This document shows positions 1-15,625 of a stretch of 15,625 nucleotides of DNA, piece by piece (the first letter of the stretch is position 1; every line of letters starts with the position of its first letter). Location of the stretch: assembly GCA_043822705.1 (NCBI GenBank), contig JBDRBK010000089.1:1-15625 (forward strand), in the 5' to 3' direction. Below the pieces are notes generated by a model. The model saw only the letters and a list, made by a program, of their open reading frames with translations. It did not search any database and was not told the DNA's origin. Source of the DNA: Fidelibacterota bacterium. Its GTDB lineage: Bacteria > Fidelibacterota > Marinisomatia > Marinisomatales > TCS56. Position numbers and translations under genes: made by a program.

Positions 1-1446
1 ATCTGATTCTCCGGAGGAGGCATACATGGCAGCAATTTCGGGATCGGCGGAGTTGGTCATATACTGGAGGTAATAAGCGTCACCGGAATAGGCGTCATAA
101 TCGGTGGCTGCATCAAAACCGGGATTGTCATCATCCACGCCACCGGTGATGGTATTGATCACCTGCGGCGATAACTCGCGGTCATACAGACTTTCGTAAA
201 AAGAGAAACCGATATTCAGACCGATGAAGGGTGTAACGCGCAGATTTCCGCCCCAGGTCACTTCGGTGACTGAATTGGTCAATTCATGATAAATCTTGGT
301 GGTATCACCGTAGGCGCCCCAGGGCAGTCGGGGCTGCATGACAATCAGGCTGGAAAAACTGGAATCGGCATTGATAATCGCATCCCGTGGTGCCTTGGAA
401 GCGAAGAATGCCGTCCTTATGAACCGGTTGGAAAATTGAACGGCGGCGCCATTCAAAACATATTCGATGGAGCGTGTGGCATCGGGAAAGATACCTTCCG
501 CGCGCTTGGTGAAACCATAACCAGTGCGCCGGGGACTGAAAAAGTCACCGGTTTCCAGCACTACACCATTACCGAAAGCAGCGGTATAGTTACCAACGAT
601 CAGACGGTCCAGACGCAGAAATCCCAGATCGACGTTCTCCAGCGACAGATAGCCTTTCTCACTTACCAGATCTTCCGGGTCGCCCATGTTCTGCCGGAAG
701 ACATAGCCCGCTTTCCAGTGACGACCGTACACGGCAGTGAGTTTTCGGTAATTTTCCGGTCGGTCGGCATCAGCAAATGCGGCAATGTTGCCTTCATCGT
801 CGGGATTGGTGGTCACCGGTACCGTACGGTATAACTGGGTAAAACGCAGGTGCGGTCGCGGTTTGGCGGTGGAGTCGGTCTCGAACCGGATGAAATCGAT
901 CAGGTTGCGATAGCCGTAATAACTGATACCAGGAGCATTACGCAATTCAAAATCGCCATAAATCTGCCCAAGCCGTTGCTGCTTCAGCACCGCCACTACG
1001 TCGATCGGGCTCAGATTGGGTAAGGCGATCAGATCGTCATAATTCATTTTATTGATATCGGCCGGTTCGAATGAGCGATCCAGCCAGATTTCTGACAGTC
1101 CCTCGGTATTGCCTTCCGCCGCCAGCCATTGATCGACCTTATAGGCGGCCACCTGACTGTTTTCCAGAAAGTCGGATAATTCCGGCAGCCACACCGCCAC
1201 CAGCGGTTTAAGGCGATAGACATCTTCGATTGTGAATTCCGGCAGATCGACCAGATCATAAATAGTAGTGAAAAACCGTTGACTTTCAAGCCGTTGCGCG
1301 ATTGCTGCAATCTGCGCAGCCGAAAGCGGCAGAGTTTTCAATTCCTCCAGAGTAGCTTCATTCAGGTCCAGTTTAGCCTCCACCCCAAATGCTAAAGTCA
1401 GGATGATCAAACCGATCACAATATATTTTGATTTCTTTTCCAACAC
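1..1446 (-). CDS. Helix-hairpin-helix (ComEA-like) domain outer-membrane protein, 3'-truncated by the window edge (at least 482 aa)
   Basis: Not in the ORF track; translated by hand. GTG at 1446 lies 7 nt after TAAGGA and the frame stays open to position 1. It begins with signal peptide MLEKKSKYIVIGLIILTLAFGVEA. Two ComEA-like units follow: LDLNEATLEELKTLPLSAAQIAAIAQRLESQRFFTTIYDLVDLPEF..LKPLV and ADINKMNYDDLIALPNLSPIDVVAVL..FELRNAPGISYYGYRNLIDFI. After these comes a beta-strand-rich region containing LIVGNYTAAFGNGVVL, a motif typical of the FCB-group HhH+barrel protein family. Confidence 0.85.
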   Translation of the reverse strand, partial: MLEKKSKYIVIGLIILTLAFGVEAKLDLNEATLEELKTLPLSAAQIAAIAQRLESQRFFTTIYDLVDLPEFTIEDVYRLKPLVAVWLPELSDFLENSQVAAYKVDQWLAAEGNTEGLSEIWLDRSFEPADINKMNYDDLIALPNLSPIDVVAVLKQQRLGQIYGDFELRNAPGISYYGYRNLIDFIRFETDSTAKPRPHLRFTQLYRTVPVTTNPDDEGNIAAFADADRPENYRKLTAVYGRHWKAGYVFRQNMGDPEDLVSEKGYLSLENVDLGFLRLDRLIVGNYTAAFGNGVVLETGDFFSPRRTGYGFTKRAEGIFPDATRSIEYVLNGAAVQFSNRFIRTAFFASKAPRDAIINADSSFSSLIVMQPRLPWGAYGDTTKIYHELTNSVTEVTWGGNLRVTPFIGLNIGFSFYESLYDRELSPQVINTITGGVDDDNPGFDAATDYDAYSGDAYYLQYMTNSADPEIAAMYASSGESD

Positions 1447-1456
1447 GGTTTGGTCC

Positions 1457-2338
1457 TTAGCGCCGGGCAAAACGGATGCCGAACTGGTGTGTCAGGGGCA
1501 GGACCGGATGACTCAGCAGGCTGTAGCCGATCTTGAAGCCCGCCACCTGCACTTCCATTCCACCGCCAAAGCGATTGGGATTGGACTGTACCCCCAGACG
1601 CAGGATCACCCAGTCATTCAGTCCGTACTGGAAACCGCCGTTGATGATGATCTGATTGGCACCCAGCAGACGATCCAGATTAAGTGATGTCACCAGCCGA
1701 TCGAATGGTACGTAAGCGATGCCGATGTTCATCCGCCGCGGCAAATATGAAGTCGATGCGCCACTGCCGATTTCCGGTGAATTGATGTTTTTCAGATAGG
1801 CGCCAACCCGGTGCTTATTACGCAGCACTGCTACCAGACCGACATCCAGTCCGAAAGCGCTACCAGAGGCAGCGGCAAAGCCGTCACTGCCGTCACCACT
1901 CAGTCCGGCGCTTCGCCCCAGATCCCAGGTATAGTAATTGAGGCTATAGCCCAGCAGCAGCCGCGTGTTGCGATCCTGCTGCAGATGGAAACCGTTGGAA
2001 AAACTGTAGACCTGCTCGTTGGACAGGGTCGTACCGGAATAATCGGTCTTTAATCCCTGGGTGGAAATACCGATACTGCCCAGCACCGGAACACGCATAA
2101 CCAGTCCAAAATCCAAGTACGGCAAGTTGACAATCTTGCCGCTGCCGGCCCTGAATTCCAGTGTTTTCACTTCCGCCAGGCCGGCCGGATTATGATACAG
2201 ATTACTGCTGCTGCCGGGATTTGCCACTACCGCTCCGGCCAGGGCGGTGGCTTCCACGCCGGTGTAGATATAATCGCTGGCTACCTGAGCGGACACCATT
2301 GTCAGAGAAAATAGGATTCTCGTGAGTAGTTTATTCAT
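1457..2338 (-). CDS. PorV/PorQ-like (FadL-related) outer-membrane beta-barrel protein, 293 aa
   Basis: Signal peptide (..TMVSA|Q), GVEATALAGAVVA..SSNLYHNPAGLA N-terminal motif, FGLDVGLVA and GAYLKNINSP..LPRRMNIGIAY motifs, amphipathic strands, C-terminal HPVLPLTHQFGIRF. Confidence 0.75.
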   Translation of the reverse strand: MNKLLTRILFSLTMVSAQVASDYIYTGVEATALAGAVVANPGSSSNLYHNPAGLAEVKTLEFRAGSGKIVNLPYLDFGLVMRVPVLGSIGISTQGLKTDYSGTTLSNEQVYSFSNGFHLQQDRNTRLLLGYSLNYYTWDLGRSAGLSGDGSDGFAAASGSAFGLDVGLVAVLRNKHRVGAYLKNINSPEIGSGASTSYLPRRMNIGIAYVPFDRLVTSLNLDRLLGANQIIINGGFQYGLNDWVILRLGVQSNPNRFGGGMEVQVAGFKIGYSLLSHPVLPLTHQFGIRFARR

Positions 2339-2351
2339 TATGTGTCGCTCG

Positions 2352-3902
2352 CTAAAATTTTACGCCGATGACAACCGGGGCGATATCGGTGCTGGTCTTG
2401 CCCGACTGAAAATCAGTCGCCTCAATATGCATGAAATAGGTTCCGGGTGGAACGATTTGCCCCAGATGATCGCGACCATCCCAGCCGGCCCAGGATTCGG
2501 TGCGCTGCACTTCGCCGGCTTCGGCATAGAATTCATCCACCAGTGATGTGATAAATCGACCGGAAATATCGAAGACCCGCACGATCACCCGCGAATTAGC
2601 CGGGAAGGAATATTCGTAATCCAGGTGCTCGCCCATGGTGGGTATCAACACAAACGGCGCTGGATTGATGCTGGCCTTGCTATAATCACCCGGATAAATG
2701 CAATCGCCATACTCATTGGTTTGAGCGTAGGGATCTGGGCAACCGTAGATTTTGGCAATATCAAAATCTTCACTACTGGTTACATTTATCTGCTTTTCCC
2801 CCTGATACTCTTGTACCAACCCGGTAGCCTGAATCACATATTTTTCGAATGGGGGAGTTATCAGATAGGCACGGGGTGAATTGGGAATATCCCAGTCACT
2901 GGGCCAGACAGTACATTCCAGCCGGTAACCGTCAGGGTCTTCCAGTGTAATCGAATGCGGTCCGTTATAGACAGTCACGTCAAAATAATCAACCAACAAA
3001 CCCTGAATAATAACAGTCTGATTATCATATAATCCGTTAATAATGTCAATGAATGGTGTCAGATCTTCCGTTCCCGCCAGGCAACTGCCGTCATCTCTGG
3101 TGGCCGCCGGATTATAATTCGGCGAGGTGGGATTGGTGCAACCATAAATGATCTCTGGATGGAATACGACTTCCCAAGCCGCTGTGAGATTTTCGCTGGT
3201 TTCATCATGGCCGGTGATTCCGTTACCCGCAGATTGGGATTCGCCCGTTTCAACCAAGGATATTCTCATATATGATGAATCATTACCATGAGTATAAAAA
3301 TAACTCTGCTGATCGACAGGAGTATCACTCAGGTAAGTTGATATTCCTGATTTATCAATCCCGTGTGAATTATCCCCCCACAGGAAGTAATCCACATCCT
3401 GTACCGTCGTCGATGTTCCGTCCCATTTGAACAGAATCAGCATTTCCGGACTGCCCAACATATCCGTGGCGAAAAAGGCCGGCCCCAATGAGATAGTGGT
3501 CTGCCCCTCAATTGCATTCTCCATATCCTCATACAGAGAAAGGTCTGGAGCATGACCATAATATTCGGCAAATAAGGAATCATTGTGCATGCTAACTGTC
3601 AAGGTTTCACCAGCAGCCAGAATTGTACCTGACGGAAAACGTGCAATGAAGTCAGAAAAGGAAACACTCCAGTAATTGATTCCGTCTGGCAGATTATAAT
3701 AGTATTTAAATGATGACTTTTTCACAGCATCGGTAAGGTAGTAATCAGACAAATCCACGGCAGCATTGGTCGGGTTTACCAGTGCGACCATTTCAGCTTT
3801 TGTAGGTGTAACACAAATCCGCTGGAACAATATATGATTGCTCGTGGCCGACACCAGCGTTTGTCCAATTATAACAATTAACAGAAGATACTTTTTATTC
3901 AT
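2352..3902 (-). CDS. Secreted lamin-tail-domain + OB-fold protein with FlgD-like/T9SS-type C-terminal domain, 516 aa
   Basis: Signal peptide; LTD motif AEMVALVNPTNAAVDLSDYYLTD; GCTNPTSPNYNPAATRDDGSC motif; OB-fold-like region (VIIQGLLVD..ITLEDPDG..VIQATGLVQEYQGEKQI); CTD INPAPF..VRVFDISGRFITSL..WDGRDHLGQIVPPGTYFMHIEA. Start overlaps the upstream stop (TAATG). Confidence 0.8.
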   Translation of the reverse strand: MNKKYLLLIVIIGQTLVSATSNHILFQRICVTPTKAEMVALVNPTNAAVDLSDYYLTDAVKKSSFKYYYNLPDGINYWSVSFSDFIARFPSGTILAAGETLTVSMHNDSLFAEYYGHAPDLSLYEDMENAIEGQTTISLGPAFFATDMLGSPEMLILFKWDGTSTTVQDVDYFLWGDNSHGIDKSGISTYLSDTPVDQQSYFYTHGNDSSYMRISLVETGESQSAGNGITGHDETSENLTAAWEVVFHPEIIYGCTNPTSPNYNPAATRDDGSCLAGTEDLTPFIDIINGLYDNQTVIIQGLLVDYFDVTVYNGPHSITLEDPDGYRLECTVWPSDWDIPNSPRAYLITPPFEKYVIQATGLVQEYQGEKQINVTSSEDFDIAKIYGCPDPYAQTNEYGDCIYPGDYSKASINPAPFVLIPTMGEHLDYEYSFPANSRVIVRVFDISGRFITSLVDEFYAEAGEVQRTESWAGWDGRDHLGQIVPPGTYFMHIEATDFQSGKTSTDIAPVVIGVKF

Positions 3903-6544
3903 TATTTCAATAACGTTATTTTATTAGTAAGGCTTAGATTTTCTGAAGTCAAGCGTGTGAAGTAGATTCCGCTGGACAGAAACTGGCCGTTAGAATCCTT
4001 TCCATCCCATATCACCGAATACATTTCACTGCCATTGCGGAAATCATTCACCAACGTATTAACCAACTGTCCATTCAAATTATAAATATCCAGTCTTACT
4101 TTACCGCTGACTTCCAGTTGGTAGCTGATTGTAGTGGTCGGGTTAAACGGATTAGGATAATTCGACATCAAATTAATATTCCGCGCGACCTGTGGTTCGT
4201 CCAGCCCGCCAAGCACCACAATATCATCTGTGCTAAGAGGGTAGATCATATATTCGCCATAGGCATAATCGACGACGCCAATGATTGTTTCATAGGTAAC
4301 ACCAGCCGTCGGGTTTACCCATACGCCATTAAAATAATAATCATCGATTTTGGCCTGACCGCTGCCATCATTGACATACCAGCTGTTATATTGATTGACC
4401 GAGTCGACGGTTACATTCATTAATTCAACCAGCATACCCTCGTACTGTTCACCTGTAGCCGAGCAGGAAATTCCAAGATCACCACTATTTATTGCCACCG
4501 GATCAATGCTATTGCCATTGGAATTGATCGTAAAACTGGTGACTGTCTTCAATTCCGACAAGCCATTGTATTCGGTTACTGTGGCGGTAACAGTAACTTC
4601 ATCGCCGACGGCGGGATTGACACTGGTATCATAAACCAGAATGCCGCCCCAAGATGTTGCATCAGGCTGCTGCAGGAAAAAATTAGGATAGGTACCCGGT
4701 TTAACGGCGGTTACGATTCCAGTTACAGTAACTGTCTGGTTCAGCAGTGTTGAAGGATAGCAGTCACTGGGCCCGGATCCAGCCTGATCGGCATACTGGA
4801 TATCGTATATCGATAGACTACCTACCTTAATTGTTACTTCATCGGTAGCAGATTGGGCATCATTATCAAACACGGTAAGCTGAAATACAAAGGTGGCAAA
4901 TTCACTCGGCGCAGTAAAGGTAACGACTGCTTCTTCGTAATCACTCAGAGTTACAGCGGGACCTTCAAGCTTCTCCCAGAGATAGCCGACAATTGTTCCG
5001 TCGGAATCGGTGCTTCCGGTGCCGTCCAGGGTTACCAGAGCGCCGAAGTCTACCTGTTGGTCTCCACCGGCATCGGCTACCGGTATTGTAAGATCAATAT
5101 AAATATCAAGGTCATCATCATCACGGGGGATGATCTTGTATGCCAAATGAGTGTAGTTCAAAGGACCGGTAATCGAAATAAACTGGTCATCCAAAACAGG
5201 AACGTAGGAATAATGACCGGAAGTTGAATTATCGATCCGCATATTATTTGTTCCATCACTCACTTCCCATTCACCGAAACCGGCATCAACGAGTGATACG
5301 GTCACATTTTCAATCTTTACCAAGACACCTTCCCACGGTTCCCAGTCGGATTGGTTCAGAGTAAGCACTTGAGCCGCCGGCGGTTCGTTGCCAGCACTAT
5401 TAACGACCAGATTGGTGATATTTTCAATCTCTGATTTACCGTCATATTCAGCGTATTCGCCAACCAGGGTCACGTTATCACCACGCGCCACAGTGTAATT
5501 GAAAGAATAAATATTGATTCCCGAATACTGCCCGGTGCCGTCCTGAAGGTAGAAACTGCTGGTACCATCAGAAACTTCGCCGGTTCCAGCGGTGACGATA
5601 CCACTAATCCGGACCAATGAACCAAGAGTAACCGTACCGGATTGGATAGCAAAGATGGTTACTGTCTCCGGTATCTGGTAGGACTGTTGAGATGAAGTTG
5701 AAGTCTGACTGGCATCATCAGTGGCCTTAATAACAAAATATACTGTCGTCCCAGCTGCCTGGGCGGGGATAGCGCTGGACGTTTGATAAATATCGCCCGT
5801 GGTTATGGTCATAGAGATTGAATTTGGATAGGTCGTGCCGTTGGTTCCCCAAGTTAATACTACGGTACTTACCGCATTATCATCGGTGACGGTGGCACTG
5901 ACGCTGACCGCATCGACACCTGATGGCAGAATTGGATCAATGGTGATACCAGTGATAACCGGAGGTATGTCTGACCCGGCGGCCAGAATAGTCTGATTAT
6001 TATTCACGGTGCCAAAGGTCCAGGTATCCTCACTCTGCCAGGTAAAATTGGAATAGACATTACCTGAACCGCCTAATTGCAACGATAGGCCAGTGGCGCC
6101 GGTGCCATCCTGAAAAACACCAATATCAATACTTGTTACACCATTGGCAGCTCCGTCGACAGCTGTTAAGGTACCTTCATAACTCAGAAATTGAATCAAG
6201 GAGCCGGAATAACTCAGTGCAATCCCATCTGGAGCACCATTTTGGATACCGTTGGATGGATAAGTATAATAATAAAACGTAAATCCATTATTCGTATTGC
6301 CAGCAGTAAAGGAATCAAGAGTCTTTGTACCATAGGCTGCCCCACCGCTACCATTGTACAATGTAACCGAAAAATTGACTAAATCCGTATAGGTACTGGG
6401 AACTGCAACTTCAATCGCCTCATTTGCATCTGTACTAAGGTTATCATAATGAATTTCATTAATCCAGGCATTTGGTACCTGTCCGTGCAAAAACGAAAAC
6501 AAAACTAAACAATAAATAACAATGCTAATCACATTCTTTCTCAT
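3902..6544 (-). CDS. T9SS type A sorting-domain protein: LTD-like + Ig-like + 2x YhcR/ExeM-like OB-fold modules + PKD, about 880 aa
   Basis: ATG at 6544 is 6 nt downstream of GAGGAG (track starts at GTG 6547). Signal peptide ..FLHG|Q; WINEIHYDN..NEAIEV..GIQNGAPDGIAL..QFLSYEG domain seen at N-termini of ExeM/NucH-like nucleases; two OB modules (IQ..V.G.VTA..F(Y/F)LQ..GD.V....EY.G.SE..E..EG.LV...NVTV); PKD PVADAGGDQ..LDGTGSTDSDG; CTD NYPNPFNPTTTISY..IYNLNGQLV..WDGKD..LSSGIYF..KITLLK. Confidence 0.88.
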   Translation of the reverse strand: MRKNVISIVIYCLVLFSFLHGQVPNAWINEIHYDNLSTDANEAIEVAVPSTYTDLVNFSVTLYNGSGGAAYGTKTLDSFTAGNTNNGFTFYYYTYPSNGIQNGAPDGIALSYSGSLIQFLSYEGTLTAVDGAANGVTSIDIGVFQDGTGATGLSLQLGGSGNVYSNFTWQSEDTWTFGTVNNNQTILAAGSDIPPVITGITIDPILPSGVDAVSVSATVTDDNAVSTVVLTWGTNGTTYPNSISMTITTGDIYQTSSAIPAQAAGTTVYFVIKATDDASQTSTSSQQSYQIPETVTIFAIQSGTVTLGSLVRISGIVTAGTGEVSDGTSSFYLQDGTGQYSGINIYSFNYTVARGDNVTLVGEYAEYDGKSEIENITNLVVNSAGNEPPAAQVLTLNQSDWEPWEGVLVKIENVTVSLVDAGFGEWEVSDGTNNMRIDNSTSGHYSYVPVLDDQFISITGPLNYTHLAYKIIPRDDDDLDIYIDLTIPVADAGGDQQVDFGALVTLDGTGSTDSDGTIVGYLWEKLEGPAVTLSDYEEAVVTFTAPSEFATFVFQLTVFDNDAQSATDEVTIKVGSLSIYDIQYADQAGSGPSDCYPSTLLNQTVTVTGIVTAVKPGTYPNFFLQQPDATSWGGILVYDTSVNPAVGDEVTVTATVTEYNGLSELKTVTSFTINSNGNSIDPVAINSGDLGISCSATGEQYEGMLVELMNVTVDSVNQYNSWYVNDGSGQAKIDDYYFNGVWVNPTAGVTYETIIGVVDYAYGEYMIYPLSTDDIVVLGGLDEPQVARNINLMSNYPNPFNPTTTISYQLEVSGKVRLDIYNLNGQLVNTLVNDFRNGSEMYSVIWDGKDSNGQFLSSGIYFTRLTSENLSLTNKITLLK
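4220..4816 (-). repeat. Intragenic protein-level repeat, copy 2 (OB-fold tandem module, aa ~578-776 of the 881-aa track ORF)
   Basis: LSIYDIQ..VTVTGIVTA..FFLQ..GILVY..VGDEVTV..EYNGLSEL..EQYEGMLVELMNVTV..WYVNDGSG..IDD..GVVDYAYGEYMIYPLSTDDI aligns by eye with copy 1. Confidence 0.8.
5108..5662 (-). repeat. Intragenic protein-level repeat, copy 1 (OB-fold tandem module, aa ~296-480 of the 881-aa track ORF)
   Basis: VTIFAIQ..VRISGIVTA..FYLQD..GINIY..RGDNVTL..EYDGKSEI..EPWEGVLVKIENVTV..WEVSDGT..IDN..GPLNYTHLAYKIIPRDDDDL. Confidence 0.8.
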
Positions 6545-6620
6545 CACACGCTCCTCTTCACTTAATTTTGCGACGTTGTTTAATTTAATTAAAAATATTC
6601 ATTAACCAGTCATACAAATC
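6545..6620 (-). promoter_or_regulatory. AT-rich upstream region with strong RBS (GAGGAG, 6551-6556); likely promoter of the four-gene cargo unit
   Basis: Very AT-rich intergenic tract; weak sigma70-like TTGTAT-N18-TTTAAT on the minus strand. The RBS is clear, the promoter is tentative. Confidence 0.4.
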
Positions 6621-6651
6621 CGGTTGTTCCCGGCACCCAAAAGACTACACC

Positions 6652-6669
6652 TGACCGGTCGGCCGATCA
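6652..6669 (-). terminator. Possible weak hairpin/terminator at the end of the asparaginase gene
   Basis: Minus-strand UGAUCGG-CCGA-CCGGUCA, a 7-bp stem including one G-U pair, overlapping the stop codon; the U-run lies about 9 nt away, so non-canonical. Confidence 0.2.
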
Positions 6670-7650
6670 TTCGGTGTCGACATAACCGACAATATTGCCG
6701 ATATGTATCTGGCGCAGGTTATGGATCGGGGTACTGGAATAATCCGCCAGTTGCAGCAATTCCGCCTCGGTCAGCAGGTTCAGATGTTTCAGGACCGCCA
6801 TGGTCGCCGGGGGATTGGCGCGCTGGGCGCCGTCCAGCACTTTAACGGCCATTCCCCAGACCTCACCGTCGGGCCGCCGGATGGCCAGTCCCCGCACCGC
6901 CTCGCCGCCGCCTTTGGTCACCGCCCGCCCCTGCAGCACTTCCATGAAATCGGTATCGAAGCGTTTTTCGCCGGCGATCAGATAGGGATTGGCGGTCATG
7001 GCATCGTATAAAATGTTCAATTCCGGGAAATCGCCACCGGCCAGCTTCTGGAACATCCGGGCGATGCTGTACAACGGCAGGTAAGGCGTCGGCAGGCTGC
7101 AACCGTCGACGCCGATCGGCAGCTCGCGCAGACCGCTGAAGCGCTCCACCTGCTCGAAAACCGCTTTCTGCACCGGGTGATCGGGGAATGTGTAGCCTTG
7201 GGGATCAACGTTCAGTTTACGGGCCAGACACAGCATACCGGCATGTTTGCCGGAGCAATTGTTGTGGAGTGGTCCCGCCTCTTGACCGGCGCGGATCAGG
7301 TTATACAGCGATTCCTTGTGATAGGGTTCTTGCCGGCCGCATTCGTAATCATCTGCGGTGTAACCCAGTTTGTCCAGCATGGCGGCGGCGGTGCGCACAT
7401 GAATATCCTCGCCGCTGTGGGAAGAGCACATCAGGGCCAGTTCGGCCTGGTTGAAACCGGCTGCTGCCGTGGCGCCGACCACCACTGAAGCAGCGGCCTG
7501 AAACGGTTTAAGCGATGATCGGATGCAGGTCAGGTACTTGGGGTCGCCGCTGCTGAATACAATCCGGCCCGCGGCATCCACCACCACGGCGTAGGCGGTA
7601 TGAATACTTTCGATATAGAGACCACGGGTCACGGTGCATAAAATCGCCAT
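6667..7650 (-). CDS. ansA: L-asparaginase II (class 3, Rhizobium etli-type; Asparaginase_II family)
   Basis: Motifs RSSLKPFQA, CSSHSGE, HNNCSGKHAGML, DGCSLP, KGGGEAV, AVKVLDG. ATG at 7650 follows GAGGTG at 6 nt spacing (track starts at 7659). Confidence 0.93.
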   Translation of the reverse strand: MAILCTVTRGLYIESIHTAYAVVVDAAGRIVFSSGDPKYLTCIRSSLKPFQAAASVVVGATAAAGFNQAELALMCSSHSGEDIHVRTAAAMLDKLGYTADDYECGRQEPYHKESLYNLIRAGQEAGPLHNNCSGKHAGMLCLARKLNVDPQGYTFPDHPVQKAVFEQVERFSGLRELPIGVDGCSLPTPYLPLYSIARMFQKLAGGDFPELNILYDAMTANPYLIAGEKRFDTDFMEVLQGRAVTKGGGEAVRGLAIRRPDGEVWGMAVKVLDGAQRANPPATMAVLKHLNLLTEAELLQLADYSSTPIHNLRQIHIGNIVGYVDTE

Positions 7651-7789
7651 CGTCGTCACCTCACTGGTTGCAGTGATTTTTCATCTCGGATTCGTTCATA
7701 AACAATGCCAAATACGTTTATACGGTAACGCGGAAGTTACACATTTCACCGCGATTTTCTGCTACATAAAGCTTTACCCGGACCTGCGC

Positions 7790-8623
7790 TTACTTGACGA
7801 TCCGGGAGGCAAAAACAAACTGGAAGCCGGCGGCCTGCAGGCGCGGGATTTCGCTTCGCAGTACGGCCAGAGTATTGGGCCGGCCGTGACCGATAGCAAT
7901 GGCGGCGCCGTGTTTCTGGGCATAGCGGGCCAGTTTTTCGACCTGTTTGCGGATCAGTTCCGGATCGCTGTCATTATCCAGAAAAATATGGCGATGGGCG
8001 ACCGGTACCCCGATGGCGCTGATTTTCTTTTCCGCTACCGTCTTCCCGGTGGTGCGGCTGTCGATAAAATATTTATCAGTCTCTTTCAACTGGCTGCCGA
8101 CGATCGTCATCAACCGCTCACTCTCGGTGGCCTTCGAGCCCTGGTGATTGTTCATCCCCCGGGCCTGGGGAAATTCATCCAGCACCCGCCGCATCCGCCG
8201 CTCGATCTCACCACTGGTCATGTCCGTTTTCAGGATATAGTCATCTTCGCCGGCCTGGTTGGACTGCGATTCCATGGGCATGTGGATGATCACTTCGTAG
8301 TTGGCGGCAAAGGCCTTTTCGGCGATCTGGTGGCTGTAGCTATGACCGGGAATGATAGCGTAGGTCAGGTCGGCGTCCAGGCGCAGAAAGGACCGGGTGA
8401 CATCGTCAAAGTTGTAGCCGAAATCGTCGATGATAATTGCGATCAGCCCGACCGGGGCCGGTCGGACCTCGACTTTTTTCTCGGGCGGCGGCTGGGCCGG
8501 CTGGACCGTATCGCGGCGGCCGCGGCCGAAGATCAACAGCACGACCACGGCGGCAACGATCAGGATCGCCAGAAAGATCGGGGCCGGGCGCAGAGCCGGA
8601 GAATCACTGCTAAACAATTTCAT
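7790..8623 (-). CDS. Divergent polysaccharide deacetylase family protein (YibQ-like), N-terminal membrane anchor
   Basis: TM helix IFLAILIVAAVVVLLIF, Pro-rich linker, motifs IAIIIDDFG, HMPME, GMNNHQGS, YFIDSRT, IFLDN, AIAIGH. Confidence 0.93.
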   Translation of the reverse strand: MKLFSSDSPALRPAPIFLAILIVAAVVVLLIFGRGRRDTVQPAQPPPEKKVEVRPAPVGLIAIIIDDFGYNFDDVTRSFLRLDADLTYAIIPGHSYSHQIAEKAFAANYEVIIHMPMESQSNQAGEDDYILKTDMTSGEIERRMRRVLDEFPQARGMNNHQGSKATESERLMTIVGSQLKETDKYFIDSRTTGKTVAEKKISAIGVPVAHRHIFLDNDSDPELIRKQVEKLARYAQKHGAAIAIGHGRPNTLAVLRSEIPRLQAAGFQFVFASRIVK

Positions 8624-8643
8624 TCAGACGCAACCGGCAAAAC

Positions 8644-9519
8644 TCAGGGCAGATTGACCGACAGATCCAGCATCTGTGGCAGCCCCAGTTGCTGGGAACC
8701 GAACCGGATTCCATAATTAATACCAAAACGGCCCACCTGCAATCCGATTCCCCCGGATGCCATTACGACCGCCGAGGCTATTTCAGTACCCAGACTCACC
8801 GTCAGCCGATCCCAGGTGGACCGGCTGCCGACCCGGAATATCGGTCCATTTACCAGGGTCGACCATTCGCCGGTTAATCCGATGCTGGTCGGTACCAGGG
8901 GATGGTCGAAGCGGTAGCCGGCACCAACCAACAGGCGCAACGGCAGTTGCGGTATTTCCTGCACCATAACATTCATCCGTCCCAGATTCAGTAACGCAGC
9001 ACCGATAGTCAGATTTTTCCCTACCGACCGGGTGCCGCCCAGATCGAACGCCATACCGCTGGCACCCGCCGTATGTAACTGGATCTGCAACAGACGCATG
9101 GTTACTCCCACCCGGCTGCCGCCGAAGGCACGGGACCAGCCGCCTTCCAGGGCCAGGGAATAGGCGGCGTAATTAGCCAGCGGATCATCGCTGGGCCGTT
9201 CATCGCGGTAGGGCAGGTCGTCCAGGCCCAGGTAGCGCAACCGGACGCTGCCGACGTCGGAATTCAATCGGAAACGGGCATTCAGGGTGGAAACCGCCAC
9301 GCCGGTAAACCAGTCACCGTAACAGAAATCCACCTGCGGCCCGGCCCCGATTTCGGGCACCACCGCGGGATTGGTTCCCGCTGCATTCGGCAGGGCCACC
9401 TGCCCACCCAGCGCCAGCTCAATCGCTGATGACGGCACCGCCAGAAACTGGGTGCCGGTGGCCGGCAGCAGGCCGGTCAATAACAGGATTAACAGTACTG
9501 TCTTAAAAATTGAAGGCAT
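8644..9519 (-). CDS. PorV/PorQ family outer-membrane beta-barrel protein
   Basis: Likely start MPSIFKTVLLILLL (ATG 9519; alternative 9531; the track start at 9585 overlaps the upstream gene heavily). Motifs QFLAVPSSAIELALGG..TNPA, GMAFDLGG, GAALLNLG..LPLRLLVGAGY. Confidence 0.78.
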   Translation of the reverse strand: MPSIFKTVLLILLLTGLLPATGTQFLAVPSSAIELALGGQVALPNAAGTNPAVVPEIGAGPQVDFCYGDWFTGVAVSTLNARFRLNSDVGSVRLRYLGLDDLPYRDERPSDDPLANYAAYSLALEGGWSRAFGGSRVGVTMRLLQIQLHTAGASGMAFDLGGTRSVGKNLTIGAALLNLGRMNVMVQEIPQLPLRLLVGAGYRFDHPLVPTSIGLTGEWSTLVNGPIFRVGSRSTWDRLTVSLGTEIASAVVMASGGIGLQVGRFGINYGIRFGSQQLGLPQMLDLSVNLP

Positions 9520-10471
9520 AGGTGAATACATGGGCCAGTCCGGTTGGTAGTTCATAGACAACGGCATAATCAAGATAGGCGTCATTTTCCTTCCAGAAGG
9601 AATAATTCATCCCGACCCCCATGGCCACCCGCGTGTTGCCGAAGCCGCCACGGACGAAATAGCGTTCCGACCAGCGGTACTCGGCGCCGAAACGGACGGC
9701 TGAGCCCAGGTAATAGCCTTCCTGCAGGTCGACGCAGTAGCCGTAGTCGGCCGTCAGCAGAATCGTCGCCAACTGGTAGCCGGCGCCCAGCCGGAAAAAA
9801 GTCGGGAAATAATCATTATAAACCCGGCCCTCCTCATCAAGGGCGTCGCTGGTGTTCCAGGCGTATTTCGAGTTGATATCGGTGGCCGTCAGAGCGACCG
9901 TCAGGTTGGGTATTTTGCGGTACATAATCCCCAGGTCAAAACCGGTGCCTTTGCCGGTCAGGTCGCTGGAATTGATCGGCAGCCGATTGAACAGGAGTTT
10001 GATATTGATGCCGACCGCCAGCCCGGGACTGATCTGATTGGCGAATGAAATGTACAGCGCGTCTTCGCTGGTGGTAAGTTTTTCGGTCTTGAAACCGGAA
10101 TAGCTGCGGCCGTCGATATTTCCGACGCCGGAGCTGATCCAGGCAAAACCGAGTCCGGCGGTGGGCGGCAGCCCGGTGGAGAAACTGGCGGCCAGGAACT
10201 GGCGGTCCAGCGGCAGGCTGTGGTGCAGCACTGTGGCTTGTTTTTTATCGAGGAATACTACACCGGCGGGATTGTGGTAGGCGGTAAAACCACGGTCCAG
10301 CTCGGCGGTGAAGGCGCTGCCCATGGCGATCGACCGGGCGCTGGTGCCGATCCGCAGGAACGACCCGGAATAGCCGGCATAATCGCGGGCCGGCGTCAGG
10401 CCGACCAGCAGCGCTGTCAGCGCCAGTAACCGCAGACCGGGCCGCTGCCAAGGATAATAATTATGCTTCAT
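9503..10471 (-). CDS. PorV/PorQ family outer-membrane beta-barrel protein
   Basis: Signal peptide from MKHNYY (ATG 10471; alternative ATG 10528 abuts the upstream stop). Canonical FLRIGTSARSIAMGSAFTA..AYHNPAG motif, GTGFDLGIMY, C-terminal aromatic HVFTYAFNF. Confidence 0.88.
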   Translation of the reverse strand: MKHNYYPWQRPGLRLLALTALLVGLTPARDYAGYSGSFLRIGTSARSIAMGSAFTAELDRGFTAYHNPAGVVFLDKKQATVLHHSLPLDRQFLAASFSTGLPPTAGLGFAWISSGVGNIDGRSYSGFKTEKLTTSEDALYISFANQISPGLAVGINIKLLFNRLPINSSDLTGKGTGFDLGIMYRKIPNLTVALTATDINSKYAWNTSDALDEEGRVYNDYFPTFFRLGAGYQLATILLTADYGYCVDLQEGYYLGSAVRFGAEYRWSERYFVRGGFGNTRVAMGVGMNYSFWKENDAYLDYAVVYELPTGLAHVFTYAFNF

Positions 10472-10528
10472 TGTTCTCTCATCTGTCGCCGGAATCGAGC
10501 GACCTGACTGCGACTGCATGTTTTTCAT

Positions 10529-12151
10529 TTAGCGCACCACGATCAGTTTCAGCCAGTGATCCGCATTATCATAATTCATCCGGATAAAATAGGTTCCGTT
10601 GGCCACCGGCCGGGCGTTGGCATCGCGGCCGTCCCATTTATAGGTGCCCAGATCGGGATCGCGGCGGTCGAATTCCTCGTGGTACACCAGTTCCATGGCG
10701 AAATTGTAGATATCCATGGCGATCACATAGGATTCCTCCACCTCCAGATGGAACCGCACGTAGTTATCGCCACCGTCGCCGCTTTGGAAGGGATTGGGAT
10801 AGGCGTAGACGCCATCCAGCTCGACACGGAAAATCCGCCAGTTCAGACCGTTCAGGTCGGTGGTGCGGGCCAGACCGTCGCCGGTTCCGATCCACAGGGC
10901 GGTGCGAACAGTATCCAGCAGGACCGAATAGACCGCATCGGTGGTGATCTCGTCGGTCAGAAAAACCTGCCCGCCGACGGTCGGCAGCGATTGCCGGGCC
11001 GGGCGGTACAGGACCCAGTTGTGGCCGTCGTCGGAACGCCACAGACCCTTGTCGGTGGCGGCGAAAACCAGCGAATCGAAAGCCGCCACGTTATAGGCCC
11101 GTTCACCGATCAGGGTCGTGTGCCAGGTTTCACCGTCGTCGTCGCTGTAGCTCAAACCGCGGTTTTCACGGCTGTCGGTCCCCAGCGTGACCGCCCAGAT
11201 AACCCGCCGGCCGTTCCAGACCTGGCGCGCCAGGCTGACCACCCAGTTTCCGGAAAGATTGTCGTCGGGATAGAAATAATGCTCCCAGTCGATACAGCCG
11301 TTCACGTTATCGACGATGCCGCGATTAATGCCATTGGCTGTGCCGACCCAGACCGTATCGCCGTAGGCCAGAACGGAAAAGCCTTTGTGGTTGTGTTCGC
11401 CGGACTGCCAGGGATTGGAGCTGCCGCTGATGGGATCGCGGGGATTGAGCCGATAATCCGCCAGCAGACCGTCTTCGTACAGGCTGGCATCGCAGGTGGG
11501 AAACTCGGCCTGATCGTCCAGCGGCAGCGGTATCCGCTGCCAGACGCCGGTGCTGAAGCGATAGCGCCGCAGCCCGCCGGACCAGGAAGTGATCCAGAGG
11601 TAATCGCCGGAGATCGCCGCATCGTAGGTCACGTTCTGCTGCGGCACCGTCACCGGCAGGGCCTGAAACTGGCGGCTGCCGAACCAGGTGACCAGCGAAT
11701 CGTCGTCGGCTGCTTCCACCGGTTGTTGGAAATAGCGCCAGCCGTTAATAGCGGCGGTGGTAATTGCCAGTCCCTGCCCGGTGGATACGCCATCGGTCAG
11801 TCCGGCCACGGCCATGGCGATCCGTTCGCCGTCCACCGCCAGCGCCGCCACCCCGCCCGCCGGCAGGATGCCGGTCAGGCTGTTGTCGGTCAAACCGGAT
11901 TGGGAATAGAAGGTCGCCACCGTCAGCGAATCGCTATGGATCCGCGACAATCCCTGGCCGGTGCCGATCCAGACCAGCGAGTCGCCCTGGATTCGAATAT
12001 CGGTGATAGCATTGCTGTACAGTCCGGCGGCGGTACTGTCGGGCACGCTCAGCCTTTTGGACAGCTCGAAGCAGCCCGGCGCCTGGGCCGACAGGGTAGC
12101 CGCCAGCAGCATGCCTGTCACTAAACCAGTAAAATATTTTAGGAGCTTCAT
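10529..12151 (-). CDS. Secreted beta-propeller protein with T9SS/FlgD-type CTD (PorZ-like architecture), 540 aa
   Basis: Signal peptide ..TLSA|Q; repeated blades VWIGTGQGLS, VWVGTANGIN, LWIGTGDGLA; Asp-boxes SYSDDDGETW, WRSDDGHNW; CTD VYAYPNPF..IYNFAMELV..WDGRDANARPVANGTYFIRM..KLIVVR. ATGA overlap with the upstream gene. Confidence 0.8.
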   Translation of the reverse strand: MKLLKYFTGLVTGMLLAATLSAQAPGCFELSKRLSVPDSTAAGLYSNAITDIRIQGDSLVWIGTGQGLSRIHSDSLTVATFYSQSGLTDNSLTGILPAGGVAALAVDGERIAMAVAGLTDGVSTGQGLAITTAAINGWRYFQQPVEAADDDSLVTWFGSRQFQALPVTVPQQNVTYDAAISGDYLWITSWSGGLRRYRFSTGVWQRIPLPLDDQAEFPTCDASLYEDGLLADYRLNPRDPISGSSNPWQSGEHNHKGFSVLAYGDTVWVGTANGINRGIVDNVNGCIDWEHYFYPDDNLSGNWVVSLARQVWNGRRVIWAVTLGTDSRENRGLSYSDDDGETWHTTLIGERAYNVAAFDSLVFAATDKGLWRSDDGHNWVLYRPARQSLPTVGGQVFLTDEITTDAVYSVLLDTVRTALWIGTGDGLARTTDLNGLNWRIFRVELDGVYAYPNPFQSGDGGDNYVRFHLEVEESYVIAMDIYNFAMELVYHEEFDRRDPDLGTYKWDGRDANARPVANGTYFIRMNYDNADHWLKLIVVR

Positions 12152-13047
12152 CGGACCGCCACCAGCAGGGTTAGAATTTCGGAACGTTCGCCCGCCAGAT
12201 CGGCGGCCTGGAAAGACCAGCGGAACAGGCCGGTCTTGGTTTGTCCGCTTTCATTAGTCAGGCCGTATACCGGAACGGCAAAACTGAAAACACCGTCATT
12301 TTTCACCTCGTCACCGCTGGTCAGATCCGGGGCGTACAGAATCACTTCGCTGCCGTCGTCATAGAGATAGATCGGCTGACCGCGGTTCAACAATGTATCG
12401 GGCCCCACGTGCAGGGAAGTGAAACCGACCCAACTCAGGTCGTTTAAGCCGTTGGGATCGGTTACCGTCGCCCGGATCAGGACCAGGATCATGGAATCGT
12501 CGACCGGACGTGTGATCACGAAATCGGTATCGTTCGCGGTAATGACAAAGGTGCCGGCAGTATCCAAATCGGCGGCGATCAGCACCGGCGCCAGATTACC
12601 CAGATGAGTGGAATCGGTGACAATTGCAATGGTATCGATATAATCGGCGAAAAATCGGAAATAGACCAGTCCCGAATCATTGATCGTGATCGGGTTGGAC
12701 AGCAGCGCGCCACTGTTGCTGACCCGCCGGGAATAGATTCCATCCCGGGCCAGAATGTCCCCCAAAGTGCCGCCATCGTTGAGAAAGAGCGAATCGACCG
12801 CACCGCTCAGACCGCCGGTGCCGTACCAGACCACTCCGGCCGTATCGAGCGGTGCACCGGCATAAGTGGTCGTAATGGTGGCGGCGAAGTAGAGTTCATT
12901 TTCCACTTCGTTGAAATTGAATTGAATATCGGTGATCGGCGGCAGAACGGTGGTATCGTCCGGGGCCGGGGCCGGACACCCCCAGAACAGGAGGCCGATC
13001 AGCAGCAAACCCGCTAAACGCATGGGTTGAATATAGGAGCGTGTCAT
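12148..13047 (-). CDS. Lipoprotein with two choice-of-anchor X-like (LxDxG..D....DG(I/V)(Y/F)S) motifs
   Basis: Lipobox LLFWG|C after hydrophobic stretch; motifs LFLNDGGTLGDILARDGIYS and LYDDG..GDEVKNDGVFS. Start uncertain (13023, 13047, 13086 or 13089). Confidence 0.72.
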   Translation of the reverse strand: MTRSYIQPMRLAGLLLIGLLFWGCPAPAPDDTTVLPPITDIQFNFNEVENELYFAATITTTYAGAPLDTAGVVWYGTGGLSGAVDSLFLNDGGTLGDILARDGIYSRRVSNSGALLSNPITINDSGLVYFRFFADYIDTIAIVTDSTHLGNLAPVLIAADLDTAGTFVITANDTDFVITRPVDDSMILVLIRATVTDPNGLNDLSWVGFTSLHVGPDTLLNRGQPIYLYDDGSEVILYAPDLTSGDEVKNDGVFSFAVPVYGLTNESGQTKTGLFRWSFQAADLAGERSEILTLLVAVR

Positions 13048-13089
13048 GGCCGGTTCAAGCCTTTGTTTTACTAATACTTGTATCATCAA

Positions 13090-14025
13090 TCAGGGTTCTT
13101 CGCGGTAAATATGGTGGATAAGCAGGGTCCCAACCTGTTCCAGGCTGGCGGCCGAGCAGTGGCGCGGCAGGTCGCTGTGGGTGTGCCAGTAATTGTCAAA
13201 CTGGTTGGGATAATCGAAATCGATCAGGTCTACGGCCGGAATTTTCGCTTCCTCCCAGAGCGGCACATGATCGTCGTACACCACCGGTCCCAGCCGGTTC
13301 TGGAAGGCAGGCAGCTTCAGGCGCCGGGCCGTTTCCCACAGCTTCCGGACCAGTTCCGGATTGTGATTATGCGAATAGCGTTCCACCGGGATCGTCAATT
13401 CGCGGTCGCCGATCATGTCCAGTACGATCGCCTCGGCCGGGTGCGGCAGCGGCAGGTTGCGGGCAAAAAACCGCGAACCGCGGGCAAACGAGGCCGGATC
13501 GCCATTTTCACCCAGGTCCTCGCCATCGAAAAAGACGATGTCGACCCCCATCACCGGTGGCCGATCGGCCAGGATTCGCGCCACTTCCAGCAGCACGGCC
13601 ACGCCACTGGCGCCGTCGTTGGCGCCGATAATCGGTTCGCCGCGGCGCGCAGGATCGGGATCGCGGTCGGCCCACGGCCGGGTATCCCAGTGGGCGCCTA
13701 ATAAAATCCGCCGCTGCGCCGGACGGTTGAACTGCCCGATGATATTGGTCAGGGCATGTTGTTCGCCGGTGACCGGGTCGGTCAGTTCAAACGGCTGGGT
13801 AATGACCGTATCGGCCAGGACCGTCAGTTGCTCGAGGAGATAGGCGCGGCAGGCCAGATAACCAGTGGAACCGGGATTGCGCGGCCCGAAGGCGCATTGC
13901 CGCTCGAGCTGAGCAAAAGCTCGTTCGCCGTCGAAATTCGGCACCCCCCGGCGGCAACCAGCCAACGTCAGCAGTCCCGCAAAAACAATTAACCCGGTGC
14001 GAAAATTCTGGTGCGTTCTACTCAT
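13090..14025 (-). CDS. M28 family Zn-peptidase / glutaminyl-peptide cyclotransferase-like lipoprotein, 311 aa
   Basis: Lipobox TLAG|C; FGPRNPGS, LGAHWDTRPWAD, GANDGASGVAVLLE, FFDGEDLG, LDMIG, DDHVP, DLIDFDY..YWHT. Confidence 0.9.
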   Translation of the reverse strand: MSRTHQNFRTGLIVFAGLLTLAGCRRGVPNFDGERAFAQLERQCAFGPRNPGSTGYLACRAYLLEQLTVLADTVITQPFELTDPVTGEQHALTNIIGQFNRPAQRRILLGAHWDTRPWADRDPDPARRGEPIIGANDGASGVAVLLEVARILADRPPVMGVDIVFFDGEDLGENGDPASFARGSRFFARNLPLPHPAEAIVLDMIGDRELTIPVERYSHNHNPELVRKLWETARRLKLPAFQNRLGPVVYDDHVPLWEEAKIPAVDLIDFDYPNQFDNYWHTHSDLPRHCSAASLEQVGTLLIHHIYREEP

Positions 14026-14037
14026 TCCGGCCTGATC

Positions 14038-15624
14038 CTATCCGCTGATGGCGATATTGACATCAAAACCGAAATCACGGTCGATCTTGCGCCCGCTGAT
14101 GTTATTGTCACTCTCGCGGTACTCGTAAATAACACCGCCGCTGACCTTGGATGTGAAAGTGTAGGAGATGCGCAGGCCGGCCTTCCAACTGGTCATTTCA
14201 CGATCCAGGGTAAAGCCTTCAGCAATATCATTGGTCTTCCTGGTTTCACTTTCATTATAATCGAAATTAAAGGTGAAAGTGACGGTATTCTGAATATTAA
14301 AATCCTTCATGAACGGTAACGGAATCGAAAGTCCGCCCTTGTGACTGTAATTGGCGCTGCTGGTCAGCGATTTGTCAATTTTCTTGGTGAAACCGTTTTC
14401 GAGACGGTCGACTGCTTTGGAGTAATTGACCCGCGTGTTGACCGAGATTCCCTTATTCAGGGCCATAGTCACTCCCAACAGCGGGGCGAAATTAGCAGAT
14501 ACCTTGGAACTGCGTTCGTAGTCCTCGTAATCGTCAATAAACGAGCCCACTGTCAGCAGCGGCATATCGTCCAGAACGATGTCATCGAACCGCCAGTTAT
14601 GATTTTCCGAACCCTTGAAACTGTGGTCCAGTGTCACGGTGCGGGCGATCTTCTTGATCAGGGGCAGTTCCTGTAGGCCGGTCCAGCGCAGACTCCAGCT
14701 GGGGAAGGGGATGCCGTTTTCAAGGCGGTCGCCGTAGGGCAGCAGGTCGCGGGTCAGGGTGCGGGTTTCCACGCCCGTGCCACCGATCGAACTGGAGATG
14801 CGTTGCGAAAAACCCAAAGTCGTGGTGATCGACTTGGTCAGCTTGAATCCTGAGTTCAAACCGATATCCTGGTCGTGGGACCAGTCGCCGGTATTGCTGC
14901 CGACATCGGCTGCGTGGGTCAGACCGTGGTCGGGCAGCCAACCGAACTTATAACCGGCGGGGACTTCACCCTGAACACCGATACCGCTGCGGTTCAGGTT
15001 CGAGGAATAGCGGAAGCTGATCGGATTAATATTTTTACTTAGTTCGTGGATTTTCCGTAAAACCGGTTTATCAGCGGCTGATTTCTCCTTTTTCTGGATT
15101 TCCTCATCCTCAACCGCACCGCGGGCCCGGCGGACCGGAGCCTTCGCGGGCGGTTTATAAACCAGTTCCACCAGCTTGGTCGGATTCAATGACAGGCTGG
15201 AAGAAAATTTAAGGGCCGTGCCGATATTGGCGCCATCGATGGTGCTCGACAACGGCTTGCTCCAGCGGTAGCCCGCCGAATAATTGAAATTGGGGCTCAG
15301 CCAGTCCAGCAGCGCCGGCGTATAGGTCAGCGATAGGTTTTCCGTGGAGTTGGTGACGATACCCGGGTCCAGATCGCGAACGGCCATCCAGGCATAACCG
15401 CGATAATGCTCCAGATCGCTGGTCGCGTTGCGGGAATACTTGATCGATTTCAGCGACTCGGTCATTTTATAGTCAACGGTATATGCCCGCGTCATACCAA
15501 GACTATAATCGGTGGTGGTCTTTGTCCCGGCCCGCGGTTCCTTCTCGGTATAGGTCTCACTCACATTCAGATTGGTGCTGATATTGGTGGGCGTGTAATA
15601 AAGATGCAGATCGCTCAGTTTATT
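14038..15624 (-). CDS. sprA: SprA/Sov-family T9SS outer-membrane translocon, C-terminal part (5'-truncated by the window edge)
   Basis: Frame is open beyond the track start to the window end (NKLSDLHLYYTPTNISTNLNVSE..). SprA-like features: LDWLSPNFNYSAGYRW, PAGYKFG, PFPSWSLRWTGL, TLDHSFKG, NFAPLLGVTM, ISYTFTSKV, terminal strand FGFDVNIAI. Confidence 0.82.
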   Translation of the reverse strand, partial: NKLSDLHLYYTPTNISTNLNVSETYTEKEPRAGTKTTTDYSLGMTRAYTVDYKMTESLKSIKYSRNATSDLEHYRGYAWMAVRDLDPGIVTNSTENLSLTYTPALLDWLSPNFNYSAGYRWSKPLSSTIDGANIGTALKFSSSLSLNPTKLVELVYKPPAKAPVRRARGAVEDEEIQKKEKSAADKPVLRKIHELSKNINPISFRYSSNLNRSGIGVQGEVPAGYKFGWLPDHGLTHAADVGSNTGDWSHDQDIGLNSGFKLTKSITTTLGFSQRISSSIGGTGVETRTLTRDLLPYGDRLENGIPFPSWSLRWTGLQELPLIKKIARTVTLDHSFKGSENHNWRFDDIVLDDMPLLTVGSFIDDYEDYERSSKVSANFAPLLGVTMALNKGISVNTRVNYSKAVDRLENGFTKKIDKSLTSSANYSHKGGLSIPLPFMKDFNIQNTVTFTFNFDYNESETRKTNDIAEGFTLDREMTSWKAGLRISYTFTSKVSGGVIYEYRESDNNISGRKIDRDFGFDVNIAISG

Positions 15625-15625
15625 G

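Follow-up and report, generated by a model that had tools for sequence, protein, structure and literature searches.

A conserved Marinisomatota operon around a helix-hairpin-helix-tipped outer-membrane barrel as a probable system for nucleic-acid capture and salvage

The closest known system to the locus described here is the ddbABCDEF locus of the Bacteroidales (bioRxiv 10.1101/2025.03.18.642099 / PMC12478041), to which the Riemerella RA0C_RS04915/04920 pair is related. A further point of reference is provided by ExeM of Shewanella and Xds of Vibrio, nucleases of LTD-OB-EEP architecture in which, according to the accessible text of the reports (PMC6085458, PMC6746945), the OB region is required for EEP activity and the LTD is largely dispensable. 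The window analysed here is the whole 15,625-nt stretch of contig JBDRBK010000089.1 (positions 1 to 15,625, forward strand) in assembly GCA_043822705.1 of a Fidelibacterota bacterium (Marinisomatia; Marinisomatales; TCS56). Its minus strand carries the front half of an operon that encodes two type IX secretion system (T9SS) cargos (A and B), a 293-aa barrel, and a large outer-membrane barrel with two N-terminal helix-hairpin-helix (HhH) units. The operon is strongly conserved and apparently undescribed, and it is most likely, with moderate confidence, a nucleic-acid capture and salvage system arranged around a new type of barrel. The initial annotation, made from the sequence alone, knew of no description of the unit, and literature searches (few subscription journals, no supplements) gave none for the barrel family or the operon.

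The four window genes are co-oriented with gaps of -1, 13 and 10 nt, as had been claimed for them from the open reading frame (ORF) coordinates, and the AT-rich leader with its ribosome-binding site, GAGGAG 6 nt ahead of the ATG at 6544, is likewise present. Promoter-like sites are no more frequent than expected by chance (13 versus 11.2 +/- 2.9), the promoter and terminator scan being null, and the signal peptides of the window proteins were called by eye. The features are the following (CTD, C-terminal domain of T9SS cargos):

6545 to 6660, minus strand: leader, AT-rich, with the ribosome-binding site GAGGAG 6 nt before the cargo A start (sequence).
3902 to 6544, minus strand: cargo A, 880 aa, with signal peptide, LTD-like domain, Ig-like spacer, tandem-OB module 1, PKD, tandem-OB module 2 and type A T9SS CTD (ORF and profiles).
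5105 to 5668, minus strand: cargo A OB module 1, about residues 293-480, one of two stretches matching the ExeM/NucH profile, 30% when aligned to module 2.
4190 to 4816, minus strand: cargo A OB module 2, residues 577-785, with two OB folds (AlphaFold2 model, VIA, Foldseek, profile match).
3905 to 4159, minus strand: cargo A type A T9SS sorting domain (TIGR04183, 33 bits against a cut-off of 23).
2352 to 3902, minus strand: cargo B, 516 aa, with signal peptide, LTD, single OB and a locus-specific PorU/PorZ-like CTD (ORF and profiles).
2355 to 2681, minus strand: cargo B CTD, a distinct conserved subfamily ending in ..APVVxGV (71-sequence alignment).
3018 to 6526, no strand assigned: swapped-in allele comprising cargo A and the N-terminal half of cargo B (GC 44.9%, genome 52.7%; contig C160 has another allele between the same flanks).
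1457 to 2338, minus strand: 293-aa FadL-superfamily barrel, distantly PorV/PorQ-like, the predicted CTD anchor for cargo B (profiles, synteny).
1 to 1446, minus strand: N-terminal 482 aa of the ~830-aa HhH barrel protein, with signal peptide, two ComEA-fold HhH units and large beta-barrel; open at the window start and continuing on contig C171.
1204 to 1377, minus strand: HhH unit 1, acidic, without the GIG hairpin (HHH_3 match; orthologue model against ComEA 8DSS).
883 to 1068, minus strand: HhH unit 2, better conserved and near-neutral, without the GIG hairpin (alignment consensus, model helices).

The window starts at a contig end, where an exact overlap of 141 nt joins it to contig C171, which carries the rest of the HhH gene (830 aa in total by arithmetic, 482 + 395 - 47). 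There follow genes for a 450-aa FadL-like barrel, a 643-aa nucleotidase-like/EEP fusion, a 308-aa EEP lipoprotein and a conserved hypothetical protein, all co-oriented and with overlapping stops and starts. The operon is eight genes or longer, and the four in the window are its front half; the four-gene unit first proposed consists of real genes but is incomplete, with at least four more co-oriented genes on C171, including two EEP-family enzymes. The 450-aa barrel family is nearest to FadL/TbuX (E 1e-12 to 1e-10) and is homologous to the 293-aa barrel (98.5%). Both downstream EEP proteins have signal peptides by eye and intact EEP motifs on C171. Among the fusions all five EEP motifs are found in 41/53, with the TWN-type and SDH motifs in 53/53, and among the EEP lipoproteins all five are found in 9/23, with the first and last in 23/23. 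In this genome's fusion, GD is changed to GN and GNH to GQY in the nucleotidase-like domain, and EEP stands where 5_nucleotid_C would be, so that the full set of UshA-like 5'-nucleotidase features (DxH, GD, GNH and 5_nucleotid_C) is not present. The metallophosphoesterase GNH was not found in any of the 53 fusions, and wherever the GD motif could be read it is GN, with a single exception; the stand-alone 545-aa nucleotidases of other lineages have GNHD in 16 of 16 and the 5_nucleotid_C domain. The fusion of a degenerate nucleotidase-like domain with an intact EEP domain (L029:5637-7568) is kept in 53 loci, and from its motifs the degenerate domain is a possible nucleotide-binding pseudo-enzyme. 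None of the core operon proteins scanned with profiles matched a TonB-dependent receptor family.

Compared with ddb, the operon likewise unites in one locus secreted nucleases, an outer-membrane transporter and a binding protein, the co-encoded secreted nucleases being here the two EEP proteins, whose activity is predicted. The binding modules may also be alike: as far as the accessible part of the ddb report goes, DdbD is a DUF5689 protein that resembles p202 HIN, while the OB module here matches HIN and that of a relative matches DUF5689. Unlike ddb, whose transporter DdbC is TonB-dependent and whose binders are lipoproteins, the operon encodes an unrelated HhH-tipped barrel and T9SS cargos with CTDs, and it contains two extra FadL-family barrels and a nucleotidase-type gene. 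With ExeM and Xds, it shares an LTD and tandem OB homologous to their N-terminal part and EEP domains with intact motifs in the same operon; in contrast to them, its parts are split, the OB and LTD modules residing on EEP-less cargos with CTDs and the EEP domains on separate OB-less proteins. The C-terminal EEP that ExeM/NucH carry in the same chain is absent: cargo A scores 77.8 bits against the NF033681 cut-off of 300, and the EEP profile, the only nuclease domain searched for, matches 0/134 cargo A and B sequences. The cargos, predicted to be nuclease-less, are so with respect to EEP, but the operon itself contains nuclease-family enzymes. By analogy, these relations suggest that the operon is a split version of the ExeM architecture.

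The conservation of the operon was assessed over loci that are related and not independent, with denominators that include only the loci long enough to test each neighbour. Strong profile matches to the HhH barrel (E<1e-30, full barrel) occur in 111 of 276 Marinisomatota genomes; a further 93 genomes are positive with weak matches (E 8.8e-9 at best), the listed stretches of which cover HhH units only, in short ORFs. Across 80 Marinisomatota loci, which include two single-contig genomes, the small barrel lies directly upstream of the HhH barrel in 69/69. The cargo B CTD is found there in 62/62 and an OB cargo whose CTD is of type A (cargo A) in 27/32, while the FadL-like barrel (66/66) and the nucleotidase-type gene (58/59) are downstream. 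The corresponding counts for 80 distant metagenome loci are 58/58 for the small barrel, 36/50 for cargo B, 2/31 for cargo A, 60/68 for the FadL-like barrel and 51/53 for the nucleotidase-type gene. Among the distant homologues, those with a name are from WOR-3, TA06, Eisenbacteria, Gemmatimonadota and Caldipriscus, and one Atlas cluster is mostly Cloacimonadota. The gene order, on whose conservation the initial annotation had made its proposal depend, is constant across the phylum, and distant lineages retain most of it. Moreover, several relatives have an extra EEP-CTD or endonuclease I-CTD gene immediately upstream of cargo A.

Distant loci without an upstream cargo B (L140, L146, L153, L180, L185) encode a ~430-aa protein and a second small-barrel paralogue downstream of the nucleotidase, the ~430-aa protein carrying a CTD match in L146, L180 and L185. 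In one distant homologue of the HhH barrel (P0201, 1251 aa) a TPR region is fused at the N-terminus, before the HhH units and the barrel. In the phylum survey 0/21 small genomes (~1 Mb) of family f12 have the barrel, any HhH match or a secretin. The Bacteroidota have a full-length homologue (WP_121956131.1; hhalign 99.7%, 547 columns), represented by four loci (Parabacteroides, Bacteroides, Phocaeicola, Prevotella), which differs from the operon described here in having one HhH unit instead of two and in its neighbourhood. Specifically, the gene is preceded by a homologue of the 293-aa barrel (98.7%) in Parabacteroides, and the small barrel is missing beside it in the other 3/4 loci. Literature searches found no functional study of this homologue. 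In Bacteroidales the gene stands in a fixed housekeeping context of nadA, an RNA methyltransferase, DUF4294 and radical SAM genes (L130, L211, L213).

The HhH protein of the window matches HHH_3 (HhH_3) at E 0.0049, below the cut-off, and its architecture is best seen in the AlphaFold2 model of a 77%-identical orthologue (pLDDT 79.8), which comprises a signal helix, two helical HhH units and a barrel at residues 194-826 with approximately 25 strands as tallied. Unit 1 of the model superimposes on ComEA 8DSS over 65 residues (Z 11.2, rmsd 1.3 A), so that the tandem HhH fold of ComEA is present as far as unit 1 of the model goes. In the ComEA consensus a G-h-G hairpin is followed by a basic residue. 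This combination occurs in 0/83 sequences of unit 1 and 1/83 of unit 2 here, in contrast to the genome's stand-alone ComEA, in which it is present; a further difference is that the two units are fused to an outer-membrane barrel and canonical ComEA is encoded separately. The ComEA-like HhH outer-membrane protein of the initial annotation is hence borne out by the model in its fold and its large barrel, but its hairpins are degenerate. Foldseek and VIA returned no close solved relative of the large barrel; matches of comparable size are generic (ushers, MtrB), as are those to TonB receptors (TM <=0.30). Given how outer-membrane barrels are usually oriented, the N-terminal HhH units lie on the periplasmic side. 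The lumen predicted from strand periodicity in two alignments is enriched in conserved R/K over D/E (23 versus 14 in A1, 19 versus 9 in A9), the excess over the whole barrel region being small (32 versus 26 and 16 versus 13). Two candidates for membership of the barrel family were set aside: the second HHH_3 match in the genome (contig C130) is Tex by its sequence features and not a barrel, and Riemerella RA0C_RS02645, as far as its published description goes, has its HhH at residues 236-301 and is predicted to be periplasmic.

Cargo A matches the ExeM/NucH profile NF033681 (E 8.2e-22) in two stretches over its OB region, and PKD is matched too. Its N-terminus has no Pfam LTD match at E<=0.1, and the domain there is taken to be LTD-like from a motif; cargo B matches LTD at E 7.6e-8 (33.1 bits, cut-off 34.3) and OB at E 0.0058. 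An LTD in both cargos, as originally annotated, is accordingly backed by a profile for cargo B but not for cargo A, and of the two CTDs that of cargo A is type A above the cut-off while that of cargo B is only weakly FlgD/PorU-like. OB module 2 is modelled by AlphaFold2 as two OB domains (pLDDT 95.5), both halves of the module giving Z 9-11 in VIA to the OB folds of MCM, RPA, aminoacyl-tRNA synthetases and STN1, and Foldseek returns HIN, RPA and POT1. Model, VIA and Foldseek agree on an OB fold where a non-OB fold would have spoken against the initial annotation, and the profile of the module also matches the N-terminus of a solved EEP protein, 9SF8 (E 1.7e-11). PF18942 (DUF5689) is not matched by the window cargos but is by an orthologous cargo A (E 3.2e-11) and by a second OB cargo, on contig C16. 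Of 71 cargo B CTDs, 65 match the PorU model, 53 type A and 11 PorZ, and none matches the type B model TIGR04131 at E<=0.05. When the genome's ORFs are scored with a cargo B CTD profile, the two alleles of the locus reach 162 and 161 and other ORFs <=46, while the CTD type of cargo A matches 81 genome ORFs (common type A): the cargo B CTD is a subtype specific to this locus and that of cargo A is ordinary. Alignments A4 and A7 were rebuilt without two X-containing rows each.

The 293-aa barrel scores 32.5 bits against PorV_fam (NF033709), below the family cut-off of 90, and 70/73 of its orthologues match this profile weakly (best E 4.4e-18), so that the PorV-like label describes a distant match. 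The notion of a dedicated barrel can apply to cargo B, which has the locus-specific CTD, but not to cargo A with its common type A CTD. The arrangement resembles the T9SS pairs PorU-PorV, PorZ-PorQ and type B CTD with PorP/SprF, in which a CTD gene lies directly upstream of a FadL-superfamily barrel gene, and the cargo B CTD is nearest to the PorU/PorZ type. According to the accessible text of the respective reports, the PorZ CTD remains uncleaved, with PorQ as the anchor of PorZ and PorV as that of PorU (PMC8545088), and type B cargos use adjacent cognate barrels (PMC12618676, PMC9143113). As in the type B/PorP-SprF case, the cargo gene is immediately upstream of the barrel gene (62/62 Marinisomatota and 36/50 distant loci). 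The arrangement differs from these pairs, however, in that the barrel is below the PorV/PorQ cut-off and the CTD lacks a type B match (0/71), and in that the 293-aa barrel is linked more tightly to the HhH barrel than to any cargo: it stays beside the HhH barrel also without cargo B (58/58, versus 36/50 for cargo B, in the distant loci). Among 34 non-redundant loci of 42 complete ones, distances of the cargo B CTD correlate at 0.72 with the HhH barrel, 0.72 with the FadL barrel and 0.58 with the small barrel, and those of the cargo A CTD at 0.27-0.37, values that are confounded by shared ancestry and linkage.

The two cargos differ also in their history. Contig C160 of the same bin carries a second allele (L030, C160:1-6454) whose flanks share 87% and 91% nucleotide identity with those here and whose cargos are different; its asparaginase is 96.5% and its barrel 92% identical, and it differs in cargo A (843 aa) and the cargo B N-half (689 aa). 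This copy may be a strain variant or a duplication. Cargo A (42-48% over its length) and the N-half of cargo B (58-59%) are nearest to more distant genomes, while the C-half of cargo B (79-83%), the barrel (70-93%) and the HhH gene (78-80%) are nearest to close kin. Cargo A and the front half of cargo B are a swapped-in allele of low GC. From the split in closest kin, the GC content and the second allele, it therefore follows that the OB and CTD of cargo B are core and that cargo A is exchangeable; the swap thus separates a core (cargo B OB and CTD, barrels) from exchangeable parts (cargo A, cargo B LTD).

Gene content and order, folds, intact EEP motifs and the allele swap are directly observed. 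Building on them, the operon likely, if by no means certainly, captures extracellular DNA or RNA, would pass fragments through the HhH-tipped barrel and likely digests them with its own EEP and nucleotidase enzymes for nucleotide and phosphate salvage. Specifically, both cargos would exit via the T9SS translocon SprA, whose gene ends in the window. Cargo B would keep its PorU/PorZ-like CTD and be retained by a small barrel, for which the 293-aa neighbour is the simplest candidate, and cargo A would take the general type A route as the exchangeable part. The acidic OB modules may bind nucleic acid, possibly through divalent cations, and would provide in trans an OB function that has to be in cis in ExeM and Xds, a role proposed because the EEP domains of the operon have no OB of their own. 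Fragments would then cross the large barrel, with its predicted Arg/Lys-enriched lumen and periplasmic N-terminal HhH units, and EEP enzymes in the periplasm or at the surface (together, in other lineages, with an intact 5'-nucleotidase) would yield nucleosides for a CNT transporter and DeoC. A CNT nucleoside transporter and deoC are encoded in the genome, both being common genes. Marinisomatota metagenome-assembled genomes of UBA2242 were among those in DNA-amended cultures, with no extracellular nuclease named for them in the accessible part of the report (PMC8630151), and one UBA2242 record (L103) carries the locus.

Several observations weigh against this proposal. The caveats of the initial annotation, acidic cargos and degenerate HhH motifs, both hold family-wide: the median net charge is -22 for the OB modules (n=102), -5 for HhH unit 1 and +1 for unit 2, and the G[ILV]G hairpin is absent in 83/83 sequences of unit 1 and 82/83 of unit 2. 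The nucleotidase-like domain is degenerate in this genome's lineage (GD to GN, GNH lost), no energy source for import is evident in the operon, and profile searches found no cargo, FadL barrel or nuclease/nucleotidase neighbour in the four Bacteroidota loci. Once the HhH signal is removed, the partial rho between cargo B and the 293-aa barrel is 0.09, itself confounded by ancestry and linkage. Moreover, DNA depletion by B. thetaiotaomicron is wholly dependent on ddbABCDEF, according to the accessible text (bioRxiv 10.1101/2025.03.18.642099). Binding and transport of nucleic acids by the encoded proteins are predicted.

Some of these points are compatible with a surface platform that imports nothing, in which cargos and nucleases act outside the cell for adhesion to or digestion of extracellular DNA, the barrel is a scaffold or an export/assembly channel, and the HhH units are structural, as are the HhH-like domains in GspK of the type II secretion system (T2SS). 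This reading, which we consider unlikely, gains from the hairpin and basic residues being degenerate family-wide, Bacteroidota copies included, from the operon having no energiser, and from ushers (FimD/PapC, Z 12.8-13.1) being among the nearest matches to the large barrel; the usher matches are generic, however (rmsd ~5 A, 10% identity), the predicted basic lumen is conserved, and a periplasm-type nucleotidase without a CTD lies downstream in 51/53 distant loci, which fits the import of a substrate. The substrate could also be another phosphoester or polyanion, such as a phospholipid, a sphingolipid, a teichoic-acid-like polymer or polyphosphate, given that the EEP and calcineurin-like families include non-nuclease phosphoesterases, that the downstream barrel is nearest to the FadL/TbuX lipid/hydrocarbon channels (E 1e-12 to 1e-10) and that the OB and HhH parts are acidic. 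Such a substrate is the least probable of the alternatives: three independent folds linked to nucleic acids occur together, the OB module is homologous to ExeM/NucH and DUF5689 modules, endonuclease I-CTD genes have been recruited upstream, and intact nucleotidases carry the 5_nucleotid_C domain.

The initial annotation had offered DNA scavenging and competence side by side; salvage is favoured and competence is weaker. For natural competence, the barrel would be a pilus-independent gate for intact transforming DNA, with the ComEA units as a periplasmic ratchet that leads to ComEC. The ComEA fold of unit 1 (Z 11.2) and the presence of ComEC fit, and no secretin was found in this genome or in 16/111 carriers, one closed genome among them; for this genome's bin, which is 93% complete, the absence may reflect incompleteness. 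As far as the accessible texts go, the ddb locus is related to a transformation system, and the outer-membrane route of DNA in P. gingivalis is described as unresolved (PMC11532111). Yet the genome encodes a separate canonical ComEA with KIG/GIG hairpins, and secretins (those of T2SS and type IV pili not being separated) occur in 95/111 barrel carriers, in 7/7 other genomes of the family and in 208/276 genomes of the phylum, so that a general rule by which the barrel replaces a missing pilus was rejected. HhH proteins needed for transformation in Riemerella (PMC8459023) and P. gingivalis (PMC11532111) are, in the accessible descriptions, periplasmic ComEA-like proteins with other domain positions, the essential P. 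gingivalis ComEA having its domain at residues 94-165. Co-encoded nucleases and a nucleotidase would destroy transforming DNA, and salvage is the better reading because the operon contains nucleases and nucleotidases; a competence function is quite improbable.

A broader proposal may tentatively be advanced, more doubtful than salvage itself: the HhH barrel could be a third kind of outer-membrane gate for nucleic acids, needing neither pilus/secretin nor TonB, that has its periplasmic trap built in and is served by interchangeable OB "lids" anchored through the T9SS. Its range would run from Marinisomatota, WOR-3, Eisenbacteria, Gemmatimonadota and Cloacimonadota to gut Bacteroidota, and the operon would amount to a split ExeM round its own pore. 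Marinisomatota are abundant uncultured marine and subsurface bacteria, and the 111 of 276 sampled genomes with a full-length barrel would, if the salvage reading holds, have a new class of outer-membrane channel and a named machinery for tapping dissolved DNA for phosphorus, nitrogen and nucleosides. Culturable Bacteroidota (Parabacteroides, Bacteroides, Phocaeicola, Prevotella) have a homologue, which makes the central claim directly testable.

Beyond the leader, the minus strand holds a run of T9SS genes (8644-15625), in which the SprA translocon gene ends at the other side of the window and continues on contig C178; it is followed by a PorZ-like gene and two PorV/PorQ genes, of which the latter, upstream of the operon, are of the true type (PorV_fam 91.8 and 65.1 bits). 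The run comprises the C-terminus of SprA, an M28 peptidase lipoprotein, a choice-of-anchor X lipoprotein, the PorZ-like CTD protein and the two PorV/PorQ barrels, after which come a divergent polysaccharide deacetylase and an asparaginase II, and the same run precedes the operon in several relatives. Lastly, a pair of genes on contig C16 (L116:4481-9949) encodes a 725-aa protein with no Pfam match (unnamed in the Atlas, with an Fn3-like lead) and a 1091-aa cargo that has a CTD and four OB/DUF5689 modules; a similar pair lies directly downstream of the operon's EEP gene in several relatives (L038, L039, L041, L101, L108, L123).

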